In this document: positions 51,077 to 64,000 of the stretch, piece after piece
Layout of the letters: the number at the start of each line of letters is the position of its first letter
Numbering within the stretch: the stretch's first letter is position 1
DNA from: an uncultured Gemmatimonadota bacterium
GTDB taxonomy: Bacteria > JAAXHH01
NCBI GenBank assembly: GCA_951812955.1
Contig: OX638340.1
Location: 2,464,001 to 2,528,000, forward strand
Length of the DNA: 64,000 bases
Direction of reading: 5' to 3'
Made by a program: the position numbers and the translations under genes
The notes under the pieces: generated by a model
The model's database searches: none
What the model saw: the letters and a program-made list of their open reading frames with translations, nothing else
Told to the model about the DNA's origin: nothing

Positions 51077-51769
51077 TTAGTCCCCCACGATCTTCCCGTC
51101 ACGCAGTCGCAGGATCCGGTCGCAGTGCCTGGCGACGTGCTCTTCATGGGTCACCAGCACGATCGTATGTCCGTCCCCGTTCAGGCGATCGAATATCGCC
51201 ATGACCTCCTCCCCGGTCCCGCTGTCCAGGTTTCCGGTGGGTTCGTCCGCCAGAATGATGGACGGTTCGTTGACCAGCGCACGGGCGATGGCCACACGCT
51301 GGCGTTGTCCGCCGGACATCTCGTTGGGCCGGTGGCGGGCCCGGTCGGCGACACCCACCGCGTCCAGGGCCTCCATGGATCGTCGACTCCTTTCCATTCT
51401 GTTCATCCCACGGTAGAGGAGCGGCAATTCCACATTGCGCAGGGCGTCCATTCTCGGAAGCAAGTTGAAAGCCTGGAACACGAACCCGATCTTGCGGTTC
51501 CGGATGAAAGCCTGTTCATCGTCCGAAAGGTCTCCAACCGGTCTGCCGTCAAGTTCGTAGCTGCCCGCCGTCGGCGTATCCAGGCAACCCAGGATGTTCA
51601 TCAGGGTGGATTTCCCGGAACCCGACTGCCCCATCACAGCTACGTACTCACCCCGGTCTATGGTGGCGGAGACGCCCCGGAGCGCGGTAATGCGGTCGCC
51701 TCCCATGGGGAAGGACTTATGCAGGTTTACGATGGAGATAAGGGACGAGGAACGGATGGATCGATGCAC
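51077..51769 (-). CDS. ABC transporter ATP-binding protein (MacB/LolD type), GTG start
   Basis: Walker [10 protein letters not shown], signature [15 protein letters not shown]; AGGAAG SD before the GTG. Confidence 0.85.
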
Positions 51770-51913: not shown

Positions 51914-52597
51914 TTGACGGGACGTTTGCATCTCTATACCATAGTCGTTGCCCCTAATCATGAAATTGCCCCTGACCAAGGAACCAGTGACATGTCCGCT
52001 CCCGCCTCACGCATGAATGCCCGGCTATTTCTTTACGCAGCTGTCGCAGCCCTCGTCGCATTTAGCATCACCCTCTTCTGGCGCAATTATCAACAAAATC
52101 AAGACCTTCAGATTCTGCAGCATGGGCTATACAACGCCCAGGTAGAAATCCGCGTGCTGCAGGCGACCAATATGTTCGGGGCGCCCTTTATCACCCCCTT
52201 CCCCATGGTCGACCAGCACGGCCAACCTGCTGCATTACCGAATTTCGGTAATGGTCACCTGCTCCTCCTGTTTTTTAATGCGACGCATAGTCCATTTCGC
52301 CTCGACCTGATGTCTACATTTGGGTCGGTGATCGGAGACAATGTCCCGGTTATCGGCATTCTCCAGGCAGAATCGGCCGAGGAGATCTCGCCGATCGTGG
52401 ATCAATTCAGGTACAGCTTTCCGGTGTATCTGGCCGTCGATTCGCCCTTTGATCTGCCGTTTACACCCTACTGCGTGCTGATCGATGGATCCGGCAACGT
52501 GGTACACCTGTCACCCATCGCACCCGTCGGGTCCGCCGATACCCGATCGGTGGAGGCACTTATTTCGGAATTTGCGCAGTTGCTAGAGGGCGGGTAA
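51914..52597 (+). CDS. membrane-anchored TlpA-like thioredoxin-fold protein lacking the CxxC motif (probable start at the internal Met about 51992)
   Basis: TM helix then a redoxin-like fold with LLLLFFNATHSPF in the position of the WCxxC active site. Confidence 0.45.
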   Translation: MTGRLHLYTIVVAPNHEIAPDQGTSDMSAPASRMNARLFLYAAVAALVAFSITLFWRNYQQNQDLQILQHGLYNAQVEIRVLQATNMFGAPFITPFPMVDQHGQPAALPNFGNGHLLLLFFNATHSPFRLDLMSTFGSVIGDNVPVIGILQAESAEEISPIVDQFRYSFPVYLAVDSPFDLPFTPYCVLIDGSGNVVHLSPIAPVGSADTRSVEALISEFAQLLEGG

Positions 52598-52681
52598 GCC
52601 TTTTGCGCAACCTGGTGTGAAGTATCACCGGGCACCCGAAATGACGAATATGTACAATGTAAAACAAGGAGTAGCCTGATC

Positions 52682-53176
52682 ATGATCACTATTCACAAGG
52701 TGTTAATGGTATTATTGGTCCTGTCTGTAACCGCTTGTGGCGATGATGGTCAACCGAAGCAGGCAGGTCAATCGCAAATGGCTGGCCAACCGGACCAGGT
52801 TGGTCAAACGCCAACGGCAAGCCGACCGGACCCTGTGGCCGACCAGAAAGCTGGTATTTATCGGCCCACTACGGTGGACACGAAAGCTGAGATTGTTTAT
52901 TTTCCCCCTGTTCCCACCGACGTCGTCGATCTCGAATTCGATGGCCTCACAGTGATACAACTCGTTGTTGGTACTAATGGCAATGTAGACACGGCATTCG
53001 TCGAAAGATCGTCAGATCGCGTTTCTGTGGACTCTCTGATGCTGGACGTGGCTAAAAAAATGGTCTGGACGCCGGCAGTACATGACGGTGCCCGGGTAAA
53101 GATGCGAACCTCGATCCCGTTTATGTTCAAGATACCCACTCCAACCCCTGGCGAGGAGACCGTCACCGAGGAATAA
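52682..53176 (+). CDS. lipoprotein with a TonB C-terminal-like domain
   Basis: lipobox LSVTAC; Pro/Gln-rich linker; C-terminal about 90 aa TonB_C-like. Confidence 0.5.
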   Translation: MITIHKVLMVLLVLSVTACGDDGQPKQAGQSQMAGQPDQVGQTPTASRPDPVADQKAGIYRPTTVDTKAEIVYFPPVPTDVVDLEFDGLTVIQLVVGTNGNVDTAFVERSSDRVSVDSLMLDVAKKMVWTPAVHDGARVKMRTSIPFMFKIPTPTPGEETVTEE

Positions 53177-53534
53177 GGATCAACGTGAGATACCCCGCAG
53201 ATCGACCGTGAATGCCCTCGTCTTATCAAACCTGCTGTTTCGTTTCGAAGGAGTTACATATCCGGGCGAAGGCCCAAGCAGGCCTTCTATCCGGGAATTA
53301 CGCACGCCCAGGTGCGCAATCCGTTTTTCAATCTACGAAACCCGCTCATCAAGGTGGGCGATACGGTCGCCCAGGCGTATATCGAGTTGAGATATGCGGG
53401 TATCGAGGCTGCGCCAGACAAAGAGCAGGATCCCGATTGCGACGACATTGCTTATGACGTTTGTGGCGTCCACGATCATCTCTTGACTATGTTATTTAAA
53501 AAGTTCCAGCTTCGACATCCTTCGATCTACCTGG

Positions 53535-53612
53535 TTCTGCCAGAACCGGATTGGCCCGAAACGGCCACGTATTCGCCCCGGTTAATGGTGGCGTATACAC
53601 CCCGCAACGCGG
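53535..53612 (-). pseudogene. 5'-deleted fragment of an ABC ATPase gene paralogous to 51077-51769
   Basis: about 75% nt identity to 51640-51700 (codons 26-58 of the intact ATPase) with frame-breaking indels; joined directly to element copy 2, implying a ~115-nt deletion that removed the start codon. Confidence 0.5.
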
Positions 53613-53644
53613 TATAGTCGTGGTTTGGTGGGAAATCTCGTAAC
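53613..53644. repeat. copy 2 of the conserved ~30-nt element
   Basis: TATAGTCGTGGTTTGGTGGGAAATCTCGTAAC. Confidence 0.6.
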
Positions 53645-53793
53645 AAAAGGCTTTGACAAGGAAAGTGTAAGTGTCGTTCGAATGAAAGAGCATTGTACTG
53701 TGGTCAGGAGGTAATTACTTACCATAGACCCGAACGGCTGAAGCAAATGGTGCTAAGAAACAACCACAATCAGAAGTGTTACTTGCTACTGCC

Positions 53794-56193
53794 TTATTCT
53801 GCTTTGAGTGCATCAGCAGGATTCGCCGTCGCGGCTTTCAGCGCATGGTATCCGACCGTAAACCAAGTGATCGTAAGCGCGGCGAGCCCCGTGAGAATGA
53901 ACATCCACAAACCTATTTCGATACGGTACGGAAAACCTTCCAGCCACCCCTGCATGATGTAGTAACTGATAGGTACGCCAAGAACGAGAGCGATCAGGAT
54001 CAGCCAGGTAAAGTCCTTCGACAACAGCAGGATGACGTTCGAAACCGTCGCACCGACTGCCTTGCGAACGCCGATCTCCCTGGTCCGCTGTTCGGCCATG
54101 TAGGACGCCAGTCCCAACAAGCCCAGACAGGCGATCAGAATGGAAAGCGTCGCTCCGGCGATGAAGACGGACCCCAGCCGTTGTTCGGCGGCGTACTTTT
54201 GCTCGAGATCCTGGTCGAGGAAGTAGAATTCCATGGCGGGATGGTTCGGATAGGTTTCGCGCCACTGGTCCTGCAGTATTTCAAGTCCCTGGGTAAGGCT
54301 CTGGCTGCGCAGCCTGGCTACCATCGTATTGCCACCTTCCCAAAACAGAATCAAAAGCGGTTCAATGCGTTGGTGTAGCGTATGGTAGTGGAAATCCGCC
54401 ATGACGCCGACAACGTGCATTGGAGGATAGTCGGGTGTATGGGTATAGGTAAACGTCTTACCAATCGGGTCTTCCCATCCAAAAGACCTGGCAGCCGTTT
54501 CGTTGATAAGAACTGAGTAGTTGTCCGAAGCGACTGCGCGAGAAAACGTACGTCCCGATATTATCTCGATGCCCATTGTTTCTACGAAGTCGAAACCGGT
54601 CCAGATTGTGGGGATGAGCGGGGTATCCTCCACGATATATCCTTCCGGCTGAATGAAACTGGTAGCAGTTAGTCTGCCGGGCACGCTGGTTGTTGTGCTC
54701 AGGTTTACGATTTCAGGATACTGCATCACCTTGTTCCGGAAGGCCGGGAAACCCTGGACGGTCTCATAATCAGGCAGTCGTATAACTACCACGTGCTCTT
54801 TATCGAATCCCAGTTTCTTGTTTCCGATGTACTCCAGTTGCTCCAGTATAACCAACATTCCGACGATCATGATGATCGAGACGACGAACTGGAAGGTGAT
54901 CAGCGCTTTTCTGATAAGCGACGGTGAAACTCCCGTCTTCAACGCTCCGCTAAGTACGACAGCCGGCCTGAAAGAGGAAAGTACGAGGGCTGGGTATCCT
55001 CCGGCGATAATCCCGGTACAAAGTGCGATGGCCGCCAGGGCCGGCATCAGCCACGTGGATTGATAATCCATCTCCAGTGCCTTTCCCGAAAACCGGCTGA
55101 ACTCGGGCAGGAGCAGGTGTACCAGTGCCAGCGCCACGGCCAGGGCGATGAAGGCGAAGAAAACCGACTCGCCGATGAATTGCCCGATCAACTGGACCCG
55201 CTGGGCGCCCAGCACTTTCCGAATACCGACCTCCTGCGCCCGTCGTGCCGAACGGGCCGTGGATAGGTTCATGAAGTTCACGCAGGCGATCAGCAACATG
55301 AATATAGCCACCGAGGTGAAGATGTAGACATATCGAATGTCGCTGTTCGCTTTTATCTCAAGTTTGAAATTGGAGTGCAGATGGATATCGGTGAGCGGCT
55401 GCAGATAGGGTCTGAATTCCATGCCCAGCGTCTCCAGTCGTTCACCGAGGTGCCTTACCGGAAACTGGGGAAGTTTGTCTTCCAGGTCTTCCGGCGCGTA
55501 TCCCTCTTGAATCAGGAGATAGGTATACAGGGTTCTGTCCATGTTCTGGATCGTGGTCGGCTCGTTGTATATCCCGCTCGCCGAGAGAGTGGAAAACGAA
55601 GCAAGAAAGTCGGCGCGAAAATGCGAGTTCTTTGGCATATCGCGCATGATGCCCGTGACGGTAAACATGTAGATTTCGTCTGCGGAAATCACTTTCCCAA
55701 TCGGGTTCTCATTCCCGAAAATCATCTCCGCCATGGTTTCGGAAACGACAACGGTATGGGGTTTAGTCAGGGCCGTCTGGGGATTGCCCTGAACCAGAGG
55801 GAAGGTGAAAATGTCAAATACGGTTGAATCCGCAAAAATGAAGTATTTCTCCTCATAACTTTTTTCTTCGTAACCAATGAGCCAACTGGAATCCGGCGGC
55901 TTCCACCGGGTGAACTGCTCAATTTCTGGATACTCCTCCTTCAGGACCGGACCCCACGCTGATGGCGTCCTCGCCCATTCGTCCGTTCTGCCTTCCGCGG
56001 TACCAGATACCACTATTCGGTAAATCCGGTCTTTGCGCTCGTGGTGCTGATCGTAACTGAGCTCGTCCTCCACGTAGAGCAGGATCAGAATGCAGGAAGT
56101 CAGACCGATGGCCAGACCCAGGACATTAATCGTGGAATAGCCCCTGTGCCTGAACAGGTGCCTCAAAATGACGGTAACGTAGTTTCTGAACAT
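53794..56193 (-). CDS. ABC transporter permease with two FtsX domains (MacB-like, about 800 aa)
   Basis: MacB_PCD-like N-terminus and two four-TM FtsX modules. Confidence 0.85.
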   Translation of the reverse strand: MFRNYVTVILRHLFRHRGYSTINVLGLAIGLTSCILILLYVEDELSYDQHHERKDRIYRIVVSGTAEGRTDEWARTPSAWGPVLKEEYPEIEQFTRWKPPDSSWLIGYEEKSYEEKYFIFADSTVFDIFTFPLVQGNPQTALTKPHTVVVSETMAEMIFGNENPIGKVISADEIYMFTVTGIMRDMPKNSHFRADFLASFSTLSASGIYNEPTTIQNMDRTLYTYLLIQEGYAPEDLEDKLPQFPVRHLGERLETLGMEFRPYLQPLTDIHLHSNFKLEIKANSDIRYVYIFTSVAIFMLLIACVNFMNLSTARSARRAQEVGIRKVLGAQRVQLIGQFIGESVFFAFIALAVALALVHLLLPEFSRFSGKALEMDYQSTWLMPALAAIALCTGIIAGGYPALVLSSFRPAVVLSGALKTGVSPSLIRKALITFQFVVSIIMIVGMLVILEQLEYIGNKKLGFDKEHVVVIRLPDYETVQGFPAFRNKVMQYPEIVNLSTTTSVPGRLTATSFIQPEGYIVEDTPLIPTIWTGFDFVETMGIEIISGRTFSRAVASDNYSVLINETAARSFGWEDPIGKTFTYTHTPDYPPMHVVGVMADFHYHTLHQRIEPLLILFWEGGNTMVARLRSQSLTQGLEILQDQWRETYPNHPAMEFYFLDQDLEQKYAAEQRLGSVFIAGATLSILIACLGLLGLASYMAEQRTREIGVRKAVGATVSNVILLLSKDFTWLILIALVLGVPISYYIMQGWLEGFPYRIEIGLWMFILTGLAALTITWFTVGYHALKAATANPADALKAE

Positions 56194-56323
56194 GACGTAT
56201 TATCAGTGCCGATTTATGGACGATCGTAGAGATCGCTTAATAGCGTGCTCGACTATGTTCAGAGTGCTTTCCACGTGCAAAGTGCTTCGGTTTTCGTAAT
56301 CTGGATGCCCCGTCCATCGTCGG

Positions 56324-58198
56324 TCAACCATGTTCAGAGTCCTTCAGCACTTCAATTTTGGTCTGTCCGCTTTCCGTAGCGATTACGACATCGGTATTCC
56401 CATATTCATAGGTTGTCCCTAACGACATTCTAATGTTATTACTCGACCATGCATTGAGAGGCATCAATTCCTTTACCTCTTCATACTTCAGTACACCGCA
56501 ACGGGTATGCATAACCAAGCTGGTAGTTTTCGCTGCTTTTTCGCTTAACGCCAGTATCAGGTTGCCGGAAACGGTACGGAGGTTGCACCTGCCCCTTCGA
56601 ATACCGTCAGTGTAGCACAGCCGAGTGGTGCCATAGCGGTTGAAAATGGAAACATCTCCATTTAGATCACGTGCATCCAACACAGTACGACCGACTTCCA
56701 TATCCACACCGCCACTGATTGACTCGATCTTTCCTTCCCACTGATCTGGGCGTGCTAACATGTCGTGATCCAAGCTGCTTCCCCCACAGCCGTACATACG
56801 CTGATATACCAATCCGCTTACCTGTCGTATTTTGGAGAACTCGCTGTTGAAAAGATAGACATCTCCTGTGATTCCCTGTATATGGCAGGAATAGCAGGAA
56901 TACATTAAAAGTGAACCTTTCAAACCATCCACATTGACCTTATTGGATCTGAAAACCGACATTCTCATCCCGGCGGGAACCGAAATCGACATATGGCAAT
57001 ACGTGGCATGGCCGAATAGATTCGTTTCGTCGGTACAAACAGCTTCGAAAATATCCTCGACATTGCCTGACACGGTCGCTCTCGGCAATTCTATGGGTCG
57101 TACATTCGAAGTGTGAACAGTGATACGTAGTGATTTCCCCAGACTGTTTCCCACAGGTTTCGGCAGGGGCAGAAATCCGTCGACTTCATGCTTCAAATCT
57201 GGAAACATGTCGACCGTTCTTACACCGCCGACATTATCCTCCAGCACGCGGTCATTAATCAGATCACTTCTCCAGAATTTACTGATTGGCGACGTAGCGG
57301 CTACGTAATCAGATCCATAAGGGTTGCTGGTACCAAGAAACAACGCCCCTTCGTGGGGGCCTGTTTCCAGGTAGTTGGCGACCTGGTCATGAGATATATG
57401 AAAGCCGCTGAGGTTGCTTCGCGATTCTTCTTCCGTCAGACCCAACGCGATCTTCGAACCTTCAACAATAACCTGTTTTCCCTGTGCCTGCTTAATATCG
57501 ACCTCCGTATTCACGCCGCAGTAGAGGACAATGTTTTTCGTGTCTCCCATGTCTATGGTTTCACTGAAATCTTCTCTGGCGATCTTGCAGACCACATCCT
57601 GTACTTCATCGGTCACATCGATCTGGCTCATGGCGATGGTCTCCTTTTCCTGAGGCGACAGTGCTGCTCTCAGCCGGATCCGGGACTGGAATAGCCGTCC
57701 TTTCACCGTCGATTCGGGAATGTCCAGAAACGAGGCGATTTCCTTCAGTGAAAAACCGGTGTAGTAGTACAAATTGACGATCTGGCGATAGTGTTCGGGC
57801 AGTCTCTCGACTTCATCCCAAAGCTCGAGACACTCGAGGTATTCCCGATGGATCTGGTCCGCCAGGGGGAATTCGTCGCGCATATGTTCAGCATCCGGAT
57901 CGACTCGGACCAGACGATCAACCTTCTTCCGACGGCGCGATTCCTTGCATCGGTTGACGACGATTCTGTGAAACCAACTACCGAAAACGGCCGGGTCCTT
58001 CAATTGCGACAACTTGCAGTAAGCGGCAACGAATGCATCCTGTACCACGTCCTCCGCGTCTGTTCGATCCCGAAGGAATCCCAGCGCTACGGCGAAAGCG
58101 GCGTTCTGGTACCGCCGGACCAGCGGCTCGAAGGCGTCGGCGTTTCCCTGCAGGCACTGCAGGATGCTGTAAGTGTCGTCGTGTGTTGTTTTCGCCAT
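56324..58198 (-). CDS. ECF sigma factor (about 185 aa, regions 2 and 4) fused to a ~430-aa C-terminal extension of unknown function
   Basis: sigma-2 DAEDVVQDAFVAAY...FGSWFHRIVVNRC and sigma-4 LYYYTGFSLKEIASFLDIPESTVKGRL; no TM; conserved Cys cluster YCHMSI...CYSCH. Confidence 0.75.
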   Translation of the reverse strand: MAKTTHDDTYSILQCLQGNADAFEPLVRRYQNAAFAVALGFLRDRTDAEDVVQDAFVAAYCKLSQLKDPAVFGSWFHRIVVNRCKESRRRKKVDRLVRVDPDAEHMRDEFPLADQIHREYLECLELWDEVERLPEHYRQIVNLYYYTGFSLKEIASFLDIPESTVKGRLFQSRIRLRAALSPQEKETIAMSQIDVTDEVQDVVCKIAREDFSETIDMGDTKNIVLYCGVNTEVDIKQAQGKQVIVEGSKIALGLTEEESRSNLSGFHISHDQVANYLETGPHEGALFLGTSNPYGSDYVAATSPISKFWRSDLINDRVLEDNVGGVRTVDMFPDLKHEVDGFLPLPKPVGNSLGKSLRITVHTSNVRPIELPRATVSGNVEDIFEAVCTDETNLFGHATYCHMSISVPAGMRMSVFRSNKVNVDGLKGSLLMYSCYSCHIQGITGDVYLFNSEFSKIRQVSGLVYQRMYGCGGSSLDHDMLARPDQWEGKIESISGGVDMEVGRTVLDARDLNGDVSIFNRYGTTRLCYTDGIRRGRCNLRTVSGNLILALSEKAAKTTSLVMHTRCGVLKYEEVKELMPLNAWSSNNIRMSLGTTYEYGNTDVVIATESGQTKIEVLKDSEHG

Positions 58199-58475
58199 AG
58201 GGTAGTTGTCGTCTTAAGGGTTTCGTACAAAATCAGATAATAAGGAAGCGTTACATAGAATAAGATGACCTTGCGGCCTCAACGGTTAAAAACAAAATCG
58301 TGTATATGGTGGCGGTCAGGTCTCGAAGAGTTGAAATACGGCCTATCCCCTCATGGAATGACCTTTCGAGACCGACAACGCAGATTTTGGGGTCGATTCG
58401 TATCGGTAGGTTCAGATTCAAAAGGATGCACGACTCATGACCGGTATCGGAAGCGTATTCAACTTCCTATCACGC

Positions 58476-58506
58476 ATAGTCGTGGTTTGGTGGGCAATTT
58501 CGAACG
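58476..58506. repeat. copy 3 of the conserved ~30-nt element, between the two sigma-fusion paralogs
   Basis: ATAGTCGTGGTTTGGTGGGCAATTTCGAAC. Confidence 0.6.
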
Positions 58507-58537
58507 TACAGTTACCTGCGGGGTTCGAGACTTAAAC

Positions 58538-60412
58538 TCACTTCATCGCGTCGGGGCCATCTGACAACTCGACTTCGGCGGTGCCACTTTCTGTAAGGAG
58601 CAGATAGTCCGCGTGCGTTGTATCATACGTAGTTCCGGCCGTGATGCGATGCCCGTCGTTATATGTCGAATAGAGCCGCATCACGTCCTTTGCCTGACCC
58701 AATTTCAAGACGCCACAACGCGTATACATCACAACGCTGACCGTCTTTGCGAGTCTTTCATCCAGAACCAGCTTTGCCTCGCCAGAGACGGTCCTGAGGT
58801 TACAACGAGTTCCGGATTCCCGGGATGACTGGTACAAGCGGGTTGTACCGAATCGGTTGTAAATGGATACGTCACCCTCCAGGTCCTGCGCGTCCAGCAC
58901 GAAACGGCCGACATCGATATCCACACTGCCCTTTATATTGGATAGTTTTCCTTCCCACACATCCGTGTTGCGTATCATTCCGTCAAGGTAGCTCGCGGCG
59001 CCGTATTCATACATTCGCTGACAGAACACACCGCCTACTTCATGTATATCCGAAAACATGCTGTTGAACAGGTACACATCCTTCGAGATACCGGTTATCT
59101 GGCAGGAATGGCAGGCATACACCATCAAGGAACCGTTCAATCCCTCCGCGTTGATCCGCTTCGCCTTGAACACCGAAATGTTCTTTCCGGCCGGGACCTC
59201 AATAGAAACATGACAGTACGAGGCCGGTCCGAAAACCTTGGAATCATCGGACCAGTAAACCTGGAAAACATCCTTGATGCTTTCCGTCATGGCGGAGTTC
59301 GGTACATGAATCGGCCGTACTTCCATCGTGTGAACCGAAATCCGTATTGATTTGCTCAAGCTCGCACGCGCCGGTTTTGGCAGCGGAGGAAACGTATCGA
59401 TATCGTCTTTAAGATCCGGGTACAGATCGACCAATCTCACCCCGTTACAAACTTCGTCCAGCATCCAGTCGTTCATCAGATCCCGTCTCCAGTGGTCGCT
59501 GATCCGTTTGGTCATAGCTGCGTTTTCGCCACTGGTTGAATCTACACCGACAAAAAGCTCACCTTCATGGGGACCGGCTTTATAGAAATCATCGACCGTA
59601 TCGTGGGAAACGGCAAATCCGCCAAGGTTGAGGGTTGCCTCTTCTTCGCTAAAACCAAGCGCGATCTTCGAACCTCTCACAACAACCTGTTCTCCTTGCG
59701 CCTGCTTAATCTCAACCTCCGTACTCACGCCGCAATAGAGGACGATGTTCTCTACGTCGCCCATGTCGATCGTTTCTACAAAATCCTCCTTGGCGATCCG
59801 GCAGACAACATCCTGGACCTCTTCGGTTACGTCGATCTGGCTCATGGCAATGGTCTCCTTTTCCTGTGGGGACAACGCCTCTCTCAGCCGGATTCTGGAC
59901 TGATAGAGGCGTCCCCGCGCCGTGGATTGCGGAATGTCCAGAAAGGCAGCGATTTCTTTCAGTGAGAAGCCGGTGTAGTAGTACAACGTGACGACCTGGC
60001 GATAAAGTTCCGGGAGCTGCTCGACTTCATCCCAGATTTCGAGACGCTCGATGTATTTTTGATGGATACGATCCGACATAGCGAATTCATCGCGAGATTC
60101 TCCAGAAACCGTATCGACGCGGACTTGACGACCGATTCTGCTTCGTCGGACCAGCTCCTTGCAACGGTTGACAACGATTCGGTGAAACCAACTGCCGAAA
60201 ACGGCCGGGTCCTTCAACTGCGACAGCTTGCAGTAGGCGGCCACAAAAGCATCCTGTACCACGTCCTCCGCGTCTGTTCGATCCCGAAGGTAACCCAGAG
60301 CCACGGCGAAAGCGGCATTCTGGTACCGCCGGACCAGCGGCTCGAAGGCGTTGGCGTTTCCCTGCAGGCACTGGCGGATGTTATAGGTATCGTCGTGTAT
60401 GAGAGTGGTCAT
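58538..60412 (-). CDS. paralogous ECF sigma factor fused to a ~430-aa C-terminal extension
   Basis: same architecture and length (624 aa) as 56324-58198; N-terminal 185 aa nearly identical. Confidence 0.75.
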   Translation of the reverse strand: MTTLIHDDTYNIRQCLQGNANAFEPLVRRYQNAAFAVALGYLRDRTDAEDVVQDAFVAAYCKLSQLKDPAVFGSWFHRIVVNRCKELVRRSRIGRQVRVDTVSGESRDEFAMSDRIHQKYIERLEIWDEVEQLPELYRQVVTLYYYTGFSLKEIAAFLDIPQSTARGRLYQSRIRLREALSPQEKETIAMSQIDVTEEVQDVVCRIAKEDFVETIDMGDVENIVLYCGVSTEVEIKQAQGEQVVVRGSKIALGFSEEEATLNLGGFAVSHDTVDDFYKAGPHEGELFVGVDSTSGENAAMTKRISDHWRRDLMNDWMLDEVCNGVRLVDLYPDLKDDIDTFPPLPKPARASLSKSIRISVHTMEVRPIHVPNSAMTESIKDVFQVYWSDDSKVFGPASYCHVSIEVPAGKNISVFKAKRINAEGLNGSLMVYACHSCQITGISKDVYLFNSMFSDIHEVGGVFCQRMYEYGAASYLDGMIRNTDVWEGKLSNIKGSVDIDVGRFVLDAQDLEGDVSIYNRFGTTRLYQSSRESGTRCNLRTVSGEAKLVLDERLAKTVSVVMYTRCGVLKLGQAKDVMRLYSTYNDGHRITAGTTYDTTHADYLLLTESGTAEVELSDGPDAMK

Positions 60413-60442
60413 GTTGAATCAAATCGAAGTCTGAATGCAGTT

Positions 60443-61441
60443 TTAGTCGAGATATGCATCAAAAGCCGCCAGCAGTGAAGGATAGTAATCTTCGAAGGTC
60501 ATATCTTGAATATGATGCTGCTCGAAATCCTCAAGTGCTCGAATAAGGGCGGGGAGGTAGTGAAACCCCTTTTCTATATCTCGCACGAGTAAACGATCAC
60601 CGTGTTTTGGACCCGTTTCTCTATGAAACAATCGAGACGTAATGGCGCGTATCAAATGTTCGTTCAAGCATATCTCCCAAGCCCCATAGCCACCCGCCTT
60701 AGCCATTTTATCTAGTATCGGGTCCAACAATGAGGCGTACTTCCCGATGTCAGGGCGATGTCGTTCAGTAACGGGATTAACGAACGAATGGCCGAACTCA
60801 TGCCAGATGAGTTCCAGCAATTCGTCTCTTGTTCCATACACCGGAATACCTTCAACCGATCCGACAGGCCCTATCACGCTGAATATGGACAGCCTGTTAT
60901 CAGGATGTCGGACTCGAGGTCCGATCCCACCGTGTTGAAACAAGGGGCTCAAAACCAGGTTGTAGTCACGATGTCGCATTCCATAGTATTGTTCCAAGAC
61001 GTCGATCAAATTCTCACTGCCCAGTGTTTGAAAAACTGTGTCAATTAAGGATTTGTAGTACGTGGTTTGGCTTTCAAAAAAAGTACCAAAGTCCGATTGG
61101 ATCGCAAAATCACTCAGTAGTTTGTAGAATGTTCGAAACCGGGTTTCGCCTTGAAATGCTCGAATGTAGTATTCGTAGTTTTCGTACGGGAATATAGGTG
61201 TGAGTCCCGGCAGTTCCGACAGCGACAACACCGGACCCAGGTAGGCGTCCGAGTAAGTACCATTCTCTGTGATTTTCCTAAACAGCTTGACTGCCTCATG
61301 CGTTTTGAATGGCGAAAAGTAATCCCGCATGTACTGGGAATACGCCACATCGTACCTGGTTAGTCCTTCATAGTCGCACAGCAACTTTATAGTGATGACA
61401 AGTTCAATTCTGGGATCTACGTCGATGCTCAGCCTGGTCAT
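60443..61441 (-). CDS. HExxH-motif (WHEFGH) putative zinc metallopeptidase-like protein, cytoplasmic
   Basis: 332 aa; no signal peptide; ELLELIWHEFGHSF. Confidence 0.5.
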   Translation of the reverse strand: MTRLSIDVDPRIELVITIKLLCDYEGLTRYDVAYSQYMRDYFSPFKTHEAVKLFRKITENGTYSDAYLGPVLSLSELPGLTPIFPYENYEYYIRAFQGETRFRTFYKLLSDFAIQSDFGTFFESQTTYYKSLIDTVFQTLGSENLIDVLEQYYGMRHRDYNLVLSPLFQHGGIGPRVRHPDNRLSIFSVIGPVGSVEGIPVYGTRDELLELIWHEFGHSFVNPVTERHRPDIGKYASLLDPILDKMAKAGGYGAWEICLNEHLIRAITSRLFHRETGPKHGDRLLVRDIEKGFHYLPALIRALEDFEQHHIQDMTFEDYYPSLLAAFDAYLD

Positions 61442-61503
61442 CTCTATTTCTCCGTGCTCGGCGAAAGGAGTCGGTATATCTCGACCGAGGATACCGAATG
61501 CAC

Positions 61504-62394
61504 TTACCGTCCGTACCCGCTTTCTTTAAAAAAACGTAGCGCATCGGGGCCGTCCTTTATGGCCAGAATGTCCTCAATAGCCGCCTTTTTATCAGCCCTC
61601 TTCTCGTAGTATGCTTCACATATCTTGTACCCTACGTAGTATCCAAGGTCAGCAGGCCTTGCTCCCGTGCCGCTGCCGCCGTTGTAGAGCCATTTGCTCA
61701 TATCGGTTTGTAACATTTCATTCGAGAACGATTCCCACAATTCAGTTTCGTGCGCCTCTCCATACACGTGCAAATGAGGGTTGATGTGTTTTCCAGTTGC
61801 TAACTCTCCAAGGAAATCGGCAGCACCTTCGAGTATGGAGTGACCCAGTAGTGTGTTTTCTCCAAAATCATAGGCCTGTTGAGTGTGTATAAGTTCGTGG
61901 ATAACGATAAATGGAATCTCTTCTACCGGTTTGAGGACTTCAAGATACCATTCGTTCAGTTCGTCCGAAGGAAGATCGTCCGTCCGGCACCAAATTTCGG
62001 TCCCGATCAGCAGCCCATTGCTCGACGTTGTTCCGCCGGAGGTCATTTTGCCAATCATAAAGTACACATCTGGAAAATCTGCCTTACTGTATAGTTGCTT
62101 CCAGTTGTGCATATACCCACGGATCTGATCGGTCAAATCCAACACACGGTTTGAACTCTCTCTTATAGAAGCGTAATACCTCGGTCGGGCTTCGATTACC
62201 TTGACCAACTCATCCGCACTCTCGATTCTGGATTCGATGAAATCTTTTAAACCGATACTGCCCTTTGCGAAGTACTCCGATTCGAAGATGTTTATCATTT
62301 CTTCTGTAGTCTTGCCTTCTGACAGGTCGTACGCCAGCCAGAAACGATCGATATCGGAAGTAACCAACCGGACGTCGTCGGGATCGTTACTCAT
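61504..62394 (-). CDS. HExxH-motif (IHELIH) putative zinc-dependent protease-like protein (DUF2268-like)
   Basis: 296 aa; no signal peptide; FIVIHELIHTQQ...GENTLL; GGGAGG SD. Confidence 0.5.
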   Translation of the reverse strand: MSNDPDDVRLVTSDIDRFWLAYDLSEGKTTEEMINIFESEYFAKGSIGLKDFIESRIESADELVKVIEARPRYYASIRESSNRVLDLTDQIRGYMHNWKQLYSKADFPDVYFMIGKMTSGGTTSSNGLLIGTEIWCRTDDLPSDELNEWYLEVLKPVEEIPFIVIHELIHTQQAYDFGENTLLGHSILEGAADFLGELATGKHINPHLHVYGEAHETELWESFSNEMLQTDMSKWLYNGGSGTGARPADLGYYVGYKICEAYYEKRADKKAAIEDILAIKDGPDALRFFKESGYGR

Positions 62395-62796
62395 TGAGGA
62401 AAACCTCCCTGTTTGCTGAGCATAGGCTATTGCGAAACTCGTACCAGCAGAAATACCAACAAAGGACCATGCACGTCTCGAATCTCGTTGAGTTCATAAC
62501 AGACATGATCATGGGTCTAGTTTTCCTTTGCCAGTCTGCACCCTGTGAAGAAGTCTGAATCGGTCGACCGTATGTTGACCGTACATGGTTTACAGGTGTT
62601 GATTGCCCGATGAGGGACATAACCCTCTGATAGTTTAGACGCTTCAGTACTCCAATTGATCAAAATCGAATTTGTTGGTTCTGTGAATTTGCAAATGAGA
62701 AGTCCACACACGATCATAAGAGGGACATTTACACATCGTACGTTTTGTCCTCAATTTCGTGGTCTGGTTGTTCACTGTATACACCCCACCGCATCA

Positions 62797-62824
62797 TTGA
62801 CACCGGCACCGATTCCCTTATATT
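62797..62824 (+). promoter_or_regulatory. sigma70-like promoter (TTGACA, 16 nt, TATATT) for the redoxin gene
   Basis: read directly in the AT-rich intergenic region. Confidence 0.4.
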
Positions 62825-62908
62825 CTATATATAGGTATTACTACATATAAAAAGGATCACGAGAGCAGGCTGAATACCATTAGCATTTCAAACTGAACAG
62901 GAGTAGTC

Positions 62909-63403
62909 ATGGCGTTCCTGGAAGCCGGGGTCGCGGCCCCGGAAGTCACCCTGGAAGACGCGGACGGACAATCGACGTCGCTGGCCGACCTGACTAACGG
63001 CGGCTGGTTGCTGGCCGTCTTTTACAAGGTGGGCTGCGGGACCTGCAAGTTCAGCGCCCCCTATTTCGAGAAGATCCACCAGGCTTACGGCGGCAAGCAG
63101 GGATTCCGGGTGCTCGGTGTCTCGCAGGACACGCCGGAGGACACCCGCGCTTTCATGGACGAACACGGCGCTTCCTTCGAGAACGTGTACGACGCCACCC
63201 ACTGGGCCTCCGCGGATTTCGGCCTGACGAACGTGCCGACGTGGTTTCTCATGGACGAAAACGGCGGCATACTGGACAGCAACACGGGCTTCTGCCGGAC
63301 CGACCTCAACGAGTTGTCGGTGACCGTCGCGGCCCATCTCGGCGAAGAGGCCGTTGTCATTTCGCCGGGGGACGACGGCGCGCCCGAACTGAAGCCTGGA
63401 TGA
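62909..63403 (+). CDS. thioredoxin-fold thiol-disulfide oxidoreductase (TlpA/redoxin family) with a CxxC motif
   Basis: WLLAVFYKVGCGTCKF. Confidence 0.65.
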   Translation: MAFLEAGVAAPEVTLEDADGQSTSLADLTNGGWLLAVFYKVGCGTCKFSAPYFEKIHQAYGGKQGFRVLGVSQDTPEDTRAFMDEHGASFENVYDATHWASADFGLTNVPTWFLMDENGGILDSNTGFCRTDLNELSVTVAAHLGEEAVVISPGDDGAPELKPG

Positions 63404-63644
63404 GGCTCCAAACAACCGGTCGGGCCTCGACCGTAACCCGGACATAAGAAAACGAAACCTGGAAGGCGGCCGCTTCGGCCCGGATCGAATGTTCCCGGCG
63501 CCGGAGGGTCGCTTTTTGTTCCTGTAGAGCGCAAATGATGCCGGTAAATCTGACGTCATGCCGGCCACGGTAGCGCTGAACCATACGAATCTTCACGCGT
63601 CGACCTCAGGATCACGTGCATCACAGCGGGAACATCAAGGAACC

Positions 63645-64000
63645 ATGAGCGAATCGACTACATCCCACGTCCCCAAGCCCCCGTGGCTCAAGGTACGCCT
63701 GAAGCAGGGGCCGAACTTTCGGGAACTGAAGCGCCTGGTCGGAGACAACCGGCTTCACACCATCTGCGAGAGTGCCCAGTGCCCGAATATCTGGGAATGC
63801 TGGGAGCAGCGGACCGCCACCTTCATGATTCTGGGAGATATTTGCACGCGAAGCTGCGGGTTCTGTGCGGTGAAGACGGGCCGGCCGGACAAGGGGCTGG
63901 ACTGGGACGAGCCCGAGCGCGTGGCCGGGGCCGTGGAGAAGCTGGGCCTGCGGTTCGCCGTGATCACCTCGGTCAACCGGGACGAGCGGACCGACGGCGG
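63645..64000 (+). CDS. lipA: lipoyl synthase, 3'-truncated by the window end
   Basis: PKPPWLKVRL...CESAQCPNIWECW...CTRSCGFCAV radical-SAM and auxiliary cluster motifs. Confidence 0.85.
   Translation, partial: MSESTTSHVPKPPWLKVRLKQGPNFRELKRLVGDNRLHTICESAQCPNIWECWEQRTATFMILGDICTRSCGFCAVKTGRPDKGLDWDEPERVAGAVEKLGLRFAVITSVNRDERTDG

Follow-up and report, generated by a model that had tools for sequence, protein, structure and literature searches.

A predicted Toastrack extension and a conserved internal Shine-Dalgarno–ATG element in tandem ECF sigma factor genes of an uncultured Gemmatimonadota bacterium

Sigma factors of the extracytoplasmic function (ECF) type count among the largest bacterial signalling families, and those regulated by an extension of their own polypeptide are the least understood subgroup, of which 19 groups appear in the literature (Casas-Pastor et al., 2021; PMC7826278). 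The 64,000-nucleotide stretch of contig OX638340.1 studied here (the window), from an uncultured Gemmatimonadota bacterium, carries two tandem paralogous genes, referred to as copy 1 and copy 2, each encoding an ECF sigma factor followed by a long C-terminal extension. The question raised by this locus is what such an extension is and how it might govern the sigma factor that precedes it. Judging from its modelled structure, the extension is a divergent Toastrack (DUF4097/DUF2807-type) beta-helix domain. In addition, a Shine-Dalgarno (SD) motif followed by ATG stands exactly at the boundary between both modules, where the pattern of codon usage indicates constraint at the nucleotide level.

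The fusion family and the fold of its extension

The prediction of two adjacent ORFs (open reading frames) of 624 amino acids (aa), each joining sigma factor and extension, agreed with the ORF calls and with Pfam and NCBIfam. The two proteins are 62% identical across their full length and their ORFs are separated by 339 bp. Pfam recognized Sigma70_r2 (residues 26-92), Sigma70_r4_2 (125-176) and Sigma70_ECF, all above their cutoffs, and NCBIfam TIGR02937 gave 82-83.5 bits for a cutoff of 42.9; all NCBIfam equivalog models stayed far under theirs. Sigma2 and sigma4 were the only sigma regions found, without region 1.1 or region 3, as is characteristic of ECF (group 4) sigma factors, and the closest solved relatives of the sigma module in the PDB were SigH, SigW, RpoE and CnrH. 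An undetected frameshift separating two genes had been considered as an objection to this architecture. This artefact was ruled out by the reading frame, which runs without interruption through all the complete homologs that were examined. Orthologs of copy 1 were found in other metagenome-assembled genomes (MAGs) with 80-97% identity, and those of copy 2 in five loci (L003, L007, L009, L010 and L016), with extensions 85-88% identical.

Some database entries had the appearance of stand-alone extensions and were rejected as such. P0071 and P0073, of ~435 aa, are gene calls starting at an internal Met within intact 624/625-aa ORFs that contain the full sigma domain, and P0020 and P0062 are probably internal-start calls too. 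The distant P0110, P0123 and P0128 start less than 170 nt from a contig edge, i.e., they are truncated by the contig ends. Among the short entries traced to their contigs there was no truly separate two-gene version of sigma factor and extension.

A search with the extension only returned 91 clusters at 90% identity, nearly all of them of 619-628 aa and with sigma domains, and its named matches came from Gemmatimonadetes-labelled MAGs. An exhaustive profile search covering 1.84 billion representatives gave 115 clusters (at 50% identity), mostly of 590-675 aa and with the extension starting at residue ~185-198, and a metagenome scan contributed seven further loci. Ten relatives were tested by Pfam; all had regions 2 and 4 and none had a match in the extension. 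The stretch after sigma4 exceeds 50 aa (~435 aa) in all full-length members, and the fusion is thus universal within this small and rare family. Its named members are MAG proteins from Latescibacterota, Gemmatimonadetes or Phycisphaeraceae (Planctomycetota), annotated simply as 'sigma-70 family', and all carriers are uncultured. It must be noted that the NCBI labels of the near-syntenic genomes L003, L005, L008 and L017 conflict, being Candidatus Latescibacterota in some and Gemmatimonadetes in others. The isolate names SB0665, IRC1 and Plut resemble those of sponge or coral holobiont bins, an unconfirmed host association.

With respect to the extension, the original prediction held that it has neither a transmembrane (TM) helix nor a nameable domain, and that it looks DUF4097- or beta-helix-like in places. 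No TM helix was found in the fusion protein (the highest Kyte-Doolittle mean over 19 residues was 1.03), and residues ~190-624 of the window proteins had no Pfam or NCBIfam match at default thresholds. Nevertheless, the domain can be named. A confident AlphaFold model of the extension agrees with the beta-helix fold of Toastrack (DUF4097/DUF2807), and weak DUF4097 matches were obtained for four of the seven close-clade members and for nine of the 37 members of the wide family (best E value 1.3e-5), in agreement with the resemblance first suspected. Against this assignment it must be considered that copy 1 itself did not match Pfam DUF4097 even at E <= 10, so that membership of the window proteins in Toastrack rests on the fold and on transitive weak matches. 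Searches of the extension against PDB sequences, by single sequence and by profile, gave no match. The extension positions conserved in the wide alignment (37 sequences) are D271, GPH(E)G, (R)NRFGxTR and structural glycines.

None of the extension types already described for ECF sigma factors (SnoaL, TPR, Cys-rich, DUF1835, multi-TM, WD40 and ZAS-TM) was detected by the Pfam, TM or Cys checks. A soluble extension without TM helices fits the intracellular location of the Toastrack family, and no linkage to TM modules of the PspC/LiaF type was seen, as genes for PspC, LiaF and PspA were absent from the window neighbours and from the neighbourhoods of L001, L002 and L025-L028. A beta-helix could also belong to an enzyme, namely a pectin-lyase-like hydrolase or lyase whose fusion to the sigma factor would have nothing to do with signalling, an explanation that we consider highly improbable.

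The sigma/extension junction

The boundary sequence of both window copies is cagGAAAAGGAGaccatYgccATGagccag, in which a perfect AAGGAG lies 9 nt ahead of Met190. The pattern [A/C]AGGAG-N9-ATG is invariant in all 23 close-clade genes, including those with a K-to-Q replacement. Codon usage points to a constraint beyond that on the peptide: E186 is encoded by GAG in 23/23 close-clade members, as against 35% GAG gene-wide, and K185 by AAG in 19/19, as against 54%, while the neighbouring E184 has ordinary codon usage (17 GAA : 6 GAG). Outside the junction, KE dicodons of these genes are written AAGGAG in 11 of 64 cases. The spacer and the codons at +2 and +3 are also fixed (ACC 19/19, GCC 18/18, AGC 21/21 and CAG 19/19, respectively). 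In a sliding scan of synonymous diversity over 21 genes and 470 windows (gene mean observed/expected ratio 0.69, standard deviation 0.16), the six lowest windows were those of codons 181-187, with ratios of 0.15-0.27. Synonymous variation at codons 179, 180, 188, 194 and 195 was near expectation.

Beyond the close clade, Met190 is conserved in at least 90% of the wide family. Six independent distant loci have a strong SD-like motif 6-9 nt before this Met, even though their junction peptides differ (SEETEELTM, TSGEVNAM, QQEEIDM, EKERFAM, SEETTM and KEPAM), and among 47 other internal Mets a single one has such a motif ahead of it (Fisher p = 3e-7). Three distant members at contig edges have it too, which brings the distant total to 9/9. 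Neither fusion gene of the window has an SD at its annotated N-terminal start, and among the window genes that possess one are those for DUF2268 (GGGAGG), TonB_C (AAGGAG) and redoxin (AGGAG).

The most economical reading of these data is internal translation initiation, by which a free ~435-aa Toastrack protein would be made besides the full-length fusion. Several circumstances weigh against it. The sequences are phylogenetically related, and naive probabilities therefore overstate the significance. Glu-rich linkers in GC-rich genomes naturally encode GAG-GAG, which weakens the evidence from distant members. SD use in this genome is patchy, in about 10 of 36 genes by a crude count, and no 16S rRNA gene was present in the window for confirmation of the anti-SD. 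Finally, the short entries traced to their contigs included none in which sigma factor and extension are genuinely separate genes, so that action in trans is only putative.

This last point, together with the coincidence of the junction with the exact boundary between a constant and a variable module, speaks for an alternative in which the SD-like motif and ATG are not a start at all. They would be a pause element that helps co-translational folding, the remains of a two-gene sigma/anti-sigma operon in an ancestor, or a recombination junction for cassette swaps. SD-like sequences within ORFs are reported to slow ribosomes in some bacteria. Nevertheless, a pause site would work without an ATG kept at 6-9 nt and without constraint on the +2/+3 codons; a relic would not keep its synonymous sites invariant while the flanking codons approach their expected diversity; and gene conversion at a recombination junction should depress diversity across the whole sigma module and not over 12 codons. 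Moreover, the motif persists in the 9/9 distant members despite their different local peptides. These three explanations account less well than an internal start for the conserved ATG, its spacing and the sharp trough of 12 codons, and together they are a doubtful alternative, although one to be taken seriously.

Internal initiation would open the way to a more specific arrangement, which we propose tentatively and with more doubt than confidence: a nested two-gene system with starts at codon 1, for the fusion, and at the SD-preceded Met190, for a free Toastrack that would act in trans upon the fusion, either inhibiting it in the manner of an anti-sigma factor or competing with it for a docking partner at the membrane. 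Sigma factor and regulator would then share one frame, their ratio being set by the two starts, and the extension cassettes, swappable within one chromosomal slot, would give different inputs to one constant promoter-recognition module. Nested in-frame genes whose short isoform modulates the long one are known from CheA-L/CheA-S and ClpB. Their in-frame internal SD and AUG resemble the junction element, whose putative start, suggested here by sequence conservation, would likewise give a product shortened at the N-terminus next to the full-length one.

Promoter motif, chromosomal slot and possible regulation

A conserved block with ECF-promoter geometry, TGTTTT-T[G/A]A[T/C]C-N16-C[G/A]TC-nnAnACTA, was found upstream of the fusion genes, and TTTT[G/A]A[T/C]C-N16-C[G/A]TC precedes those of the window and of 17 loci (Table 1). 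Its -35 element is GATC or AACC, where the canonical one is GGAAC. The 64-kb window contains two exact matches only, for a chance expectation of 0.07. When window and loci were taken together, 22/22 exact matches were on the fusion strand, upstream of the fusion gene (15), of DUF2268 (5, in five loci) or of MacB (2, in L010 and L017). Given that the motif heads the fusion genes and their cassette neighbours, we infer that the sigma factor activates its own expression and controls a small regulon nearby, made up of a MacB-type exporter and two HExxH proteins. These three neighbours had already been noted in the original prediction, and their presence was corroborated as DUF4932 (HEFGH), DUF2268 (HELIH) and MacB/FtsX. 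A generic scan of the operon for sigma-70 promoters and terminators gave nothing beyond shuffled expectation, and Rfam and tRNA scans of the window had no matches. The 5' leader, which separates the promoter motif from the N-terminal ATG (58220-58263 in the window, with counterparts in the loci), contains a conserved block, CTACGTAACGATTC, which in the window is CTATGTAACGCTTCC, with no SD and no Rfam match. On the opposite strand, a near-consensus sigma-70 promoter, TTGACA-16-TATATT (11/12 matches), occurs at 62797-62824 (+), ~85 nt upstream of the redoxin gene; this divergent gene is for this reason probably transcribed by the housekeeping sigma factor and lies outside the ECF regulon.

Table 1. 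Coordinates of the features of the fusion locus, as positions in the window.
Feature	Position	Strand	Description	Basis
Fusion gene, copy 1	56324..58198	-	624 aa, ECF sigma with Toastrack-like extension	ORF; Pfam r2/r4_2/ECF; orthologs
Fusion gene, copy 2	58538..60412	-	624 aa, paralog of copy 1	ORF; Pfam; orthologs
Sigma module, copy 1	57653..58198	-	Residues 1-182: sigma2, linker, sigma4	Pfam; closest PDB relatives; clade identity
Extension, copy 1	56327..57631	-	Residues 190-624, predicted soluble Toastrack-superfamily domain	
Alpha/beta elaboration, copy 1 extension		-	Roughly residues 205-388 (predicted)	
Right-handed beta-helix, copy 1 extension	56342-57034	-	Roughly residues 389-619 (predicted)	
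Junction element, copy 1	57623..57658	-	Codons 181-192, putative internal translation-initiation region	SD AAGGAG 57641-57646; ATG (Met190) 57629-57631
Junction element, copy 2	59837..59872	-	Putative internal translation-initiation region	SD AAGGAG 59855-59860; ATG (Met190) 59843-59845
ECF-type promoter motif	58264..58291	-	TTTTAACC-N16-CATC	Ends 65 nt upstream of copy 1 ATG
ECF-type promoter motif	62638..62665	-	TTTTGATC-N16-CGTC	Heads the DUF2268-DUF4932-copy 2 gene string
ABC ATPase	51077..51769	-	Conserved slot flank	In all close-clade loci reaching that far
MacB/FtsX-type ABC permease	53794..56193	-	Variable cassette member, downstream of copy 1	Pfam
DUF4932 protein (HEFGH)	60443..61441	-	30 bp upstream of copy 2, probably co-transcribed	Pfam E 3e-52; synteny
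DUF2268/GldB-like predicted Zn protease (HELIH)	61504..62394	-	Candidate regulon member	Pfam; motif upstream
Redoxin/AhpC-TSA gene	62909..63403	+	Conserved divergent slot flank	Synteny

The order of genes in 20 close-clade loci is a divergent redoxin gene, a variable cassette, a TonB_C-like gene, an ABC ATPase gene and ComEC. Fusion genes number one or two per cassette, and some are truncated or fragmented; DUF2268 and DUF4932 are variably present, as are from zero to two MacB permeases. As gene content varies among otherwise syntenic genomes, the slot between the redoxin and the ABC-ATPase/ComEC genes is a hypervariable island. In the window (~52000-64000), G+C (guanine plus cytosine) falls from about 0.60-0.65 to about 0.49-0.55 over the cassette, or to about 0.50 from about 0.62 when single values are compared.

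The flanking genes are 85-91% (redoxin), 81-88% (ABC ATPase) and 77-82% (ComEC) identical across genomes. Within the same slot, the sigma part is 73-92% identical, and the identity of the extension to either window copy goes from 44% to 91%; an ortholog of copy 1 is present in some genomes and one of copy 2 in others, while many lack both. Mean pairwise identities in the close clade were 0.83 (sigma2), 0.87 (sigma4) and 0.86 (junction), but 0.57 and 0.54 in the two extension halves. These sequence comparisons indicate a constant promoter-recognition module whose extension has been diversified and exchanged between genomes in a single slot. Distant members (L022-L028) are found in unrelated contexts; L022 adjoins FtsX-type permeases and most of the others are solitary.

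In attention to the above, we consider it reasonably probable that these proteins are cytoplasmic ECF sigma factors in which the ~435-aa C-terminal Toastrack domain serves as input or regulatory module in place of a separate anti-sigma factor. No anti-sigma Pfam family was present among the scanned window neighbours, nor among the genes called in L001, L002 and L025-L028. The active sigma factor would transcribe its own gene, both genes for HExxH proteins and that of the MacB-type exporter, and the paralogs would read the same promoters and sense different inputs through their extensions. The extension would govern the availability of the sigma factor by protein-protein contacts on the faces of the beta-helix, a mode of action proposed for Toastrack domains (PMC11237479), possibly at the ABC transporter. 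One mRNA could give two products, the full-length sigma-Toastrack and a free Toastrack from Met190, and the latter might act in trans as inhibitor, competitor or oligomerisation partner that sets the activation threshold. Two results tell against this explanation. The AlphaFold (AF2) model of the full-length protein showed no confident docking of sigma factor and extension, with a predicted local distance difference test (pLDDT) of 40-66 for the sigma part and <50 for the linker; as it shows no confident interface between them, inhibition in cis has no structural support. Likewise, an association with MacB/ABC genes was rejected as a family-wide trait, being confined to the close clade and L022, whereas the other distant members have unrelated neighbours.

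A different input would be sensed if Cys and His residues of the extension, and perhaps of the sigma part, bound metal or formed disulfides, in a switch similar to that of CorE/ECF238 or ZAS proteins. The original prediction had pointed out a Cys/His cluster in the extension. Its YCH element is indeed invariant in the close clade (alignment of seven sequences), but its CxxC varies even there (YSSANVCRL, FSSPDVSRL) and neither element is kept family-wide, YCH being replaced by GYVN, GRVA and others. In the close clade, the invariant Cys of the sigma part are C15, C61 and C84 and those of the extension C204, C227 and C567, with C401 conserved in at least 90%; H282 of GPH(E)G reaches at least 90% family-wide, and the conserved divergent neighbour encodes a redoxin/AhpC-TSA protein. 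On the other hand, the promoter motif is directed away from this redoxin gene, there is no match to zf-HC2 or any other metal-binding Pfam family and no conserved HxxxCxxC, and the wide alignment of 37 sequences retains none of the Cys of the extension, so that a family-wide Cys/His metal site is not supported. A redox role specific to the clade is possible; as the general explanation, a metal or redox sensor is quite unlikely.

It might also be argued that the extension is an inhibitory pro-domain and that the disordered junction is cut by co-encoded proteases (DUF2268 and DUF4932, or an S41 peptidase in a distant member), freeing the sigma factor. Such activation by cleavage has been established for other fused ECFs (PMC8999054), and here two genes for predicted metalloprotease-like proteins share the promoter motif. 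In the distant Latescibacterota locus L025 (8821-10119), a Tricorn_C1/Peptidase_S41 gene begins within the overlap with the fusion gene's stop codon, which hints at a proteolytic link. The junction, which this argument takes as the best-conserved segment (0.86), is predicted to be disordered, with low AF2 confidence in spite of its conservation. Yet protease genes are missing from many fusion-bearing loci and from most distant members, they resemble outputs of the sigma factor more than inputs to it, and a cleavage site in the peptide alone would leave the constraint on synonymous sites unexplained. Activation by proteolysis is, in our opinion, rather unlikely.

Relation to known systems and minor observations of the slot

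The assumption that known ECF extensions are much shorter held for the SnoaL-like, TPR and short Cys-rich types and failed for ECF57 and ECF48/52/53, whose extensions are long (PMC8999054). With the 'one-component-like' ECF41, ECF42, ECF56, ECF294/295 and ECF238, which belong to the former types, the fusion family shares a sigma2-sigma4 core followed by a soluble domain, the absence of a nearby anti-sigma factor and a presumed autoregulation via a promoter of ECF type. It differs from them in that its extension is predicted to be a Toastrack and is 2-4 times longer, in the internal SD and ATG, and in that the extension is swapped while the sigma part is constant. ECF57 carries WD40-like extensions thought to act via protein-protein interaction, and ECF48/52/53 carry a fused ZAS and TM anti-sigma of up to ~400 aa, proteolytic release being the mechanism proposed for ECF52/53 (PMC8999054). 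Their extensions are comparable in length to those of the fusion family, which, unlike them, has no WD40, zinc-finger, TM helix or extracytoplasmic part. The lineages are also different, since ECF57 and ECF48/52/53 occur in Planctomycetes and Actinobacteria and the fusion family in Latescibacterota/Gemmatimonadota-labelled MAGs and Phycisphaeraceae.

Toastrack domains are intracellular, have been proposed as sub-membrane scaffolds and are recurrently linked to transcriptional signalling and ABC transporters (PMC11237479). The known proteins LiaG, LiaF (C-terminal domain), YvlB and VraT (DUF4097/DUF2154/DUF2807; PDB 4qrk and 4opw) are intracellular, as is expected for the fusion family. In known proteins the domain is usually C-terminal to TM modules (PspC, LiaI-LiaF-TM) and signals via separate two-component systems or helix-turn-helix partners, whereas the predicted Toastrack of the fusion family is soluble, directly fused to the sigma factor, enlarged by an alpha/beta elaboration of ~180 residues and below the Pfam thresholds.

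No precedent for a sigma-Toastrack fusion or for an internal start in a sigma gene appeared in the literature searched. A soluble Toastrack extension, these lineages, the in-frame internal start and the exchange of extensions are likewise not described there, the supplementary ECF group descriptions and the ECF Hub lying outside that search. The suggestion of a new class of one-component ECF regulators is to be qualified accordingly: this type of extension is undescribed in the literature searched, but ECFs regulated by an extension are already known (PMC7826278). The family would add the Toastrack beta-helix as an extension type and would establish a direct tie between a domain of Lia/Psp envelope stress and RNA polymerase. 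What the conserved internal ribosome-binding site suggests is a sigma gene that contains its regulator within its own frame, a design unreported for sigma factors in the same literature. In addition, the slot with its constant sigma and variable extension is a natural experiment in which input specificity is exchanged and output specificity kept, with potential use in orthogonal synthetic regulators. With all carriers being uncultured, the family is also an entry point to the study of regulation in phyla of which little is known.

Some other observations concern the slot itself. Fragmented or truncated fusion genes were found in L004 (9434-11210, three ORFs), L011 (9434-10885, 483 aa) and L016 (6890-8176, 428 aa). 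These broken copies suggest frequent decay and turnover, and could also be due to indel errors of long reads. The MacB/LolD-like ABC ATPase (51077-51769) stands beside ComEC in all related genomes, even in those whose slot has no MacB-type permease, and its partner may be a permease whose gene lies outside the slot. At the TonB_C position, most related genomes have one gene of 347-381 aa, with an N-terminal part blank in Pfam followed by TonB_C. The window has instead a 227-aa ORF (51914-52597, +) and a 164-aa ORF (52682-53176, +) in the same frame, with a stop codon and 84 nt between them, and L011 is split similarly; this could be either a pseudogene with a nonsense mutation or a genuine two-gene variant.

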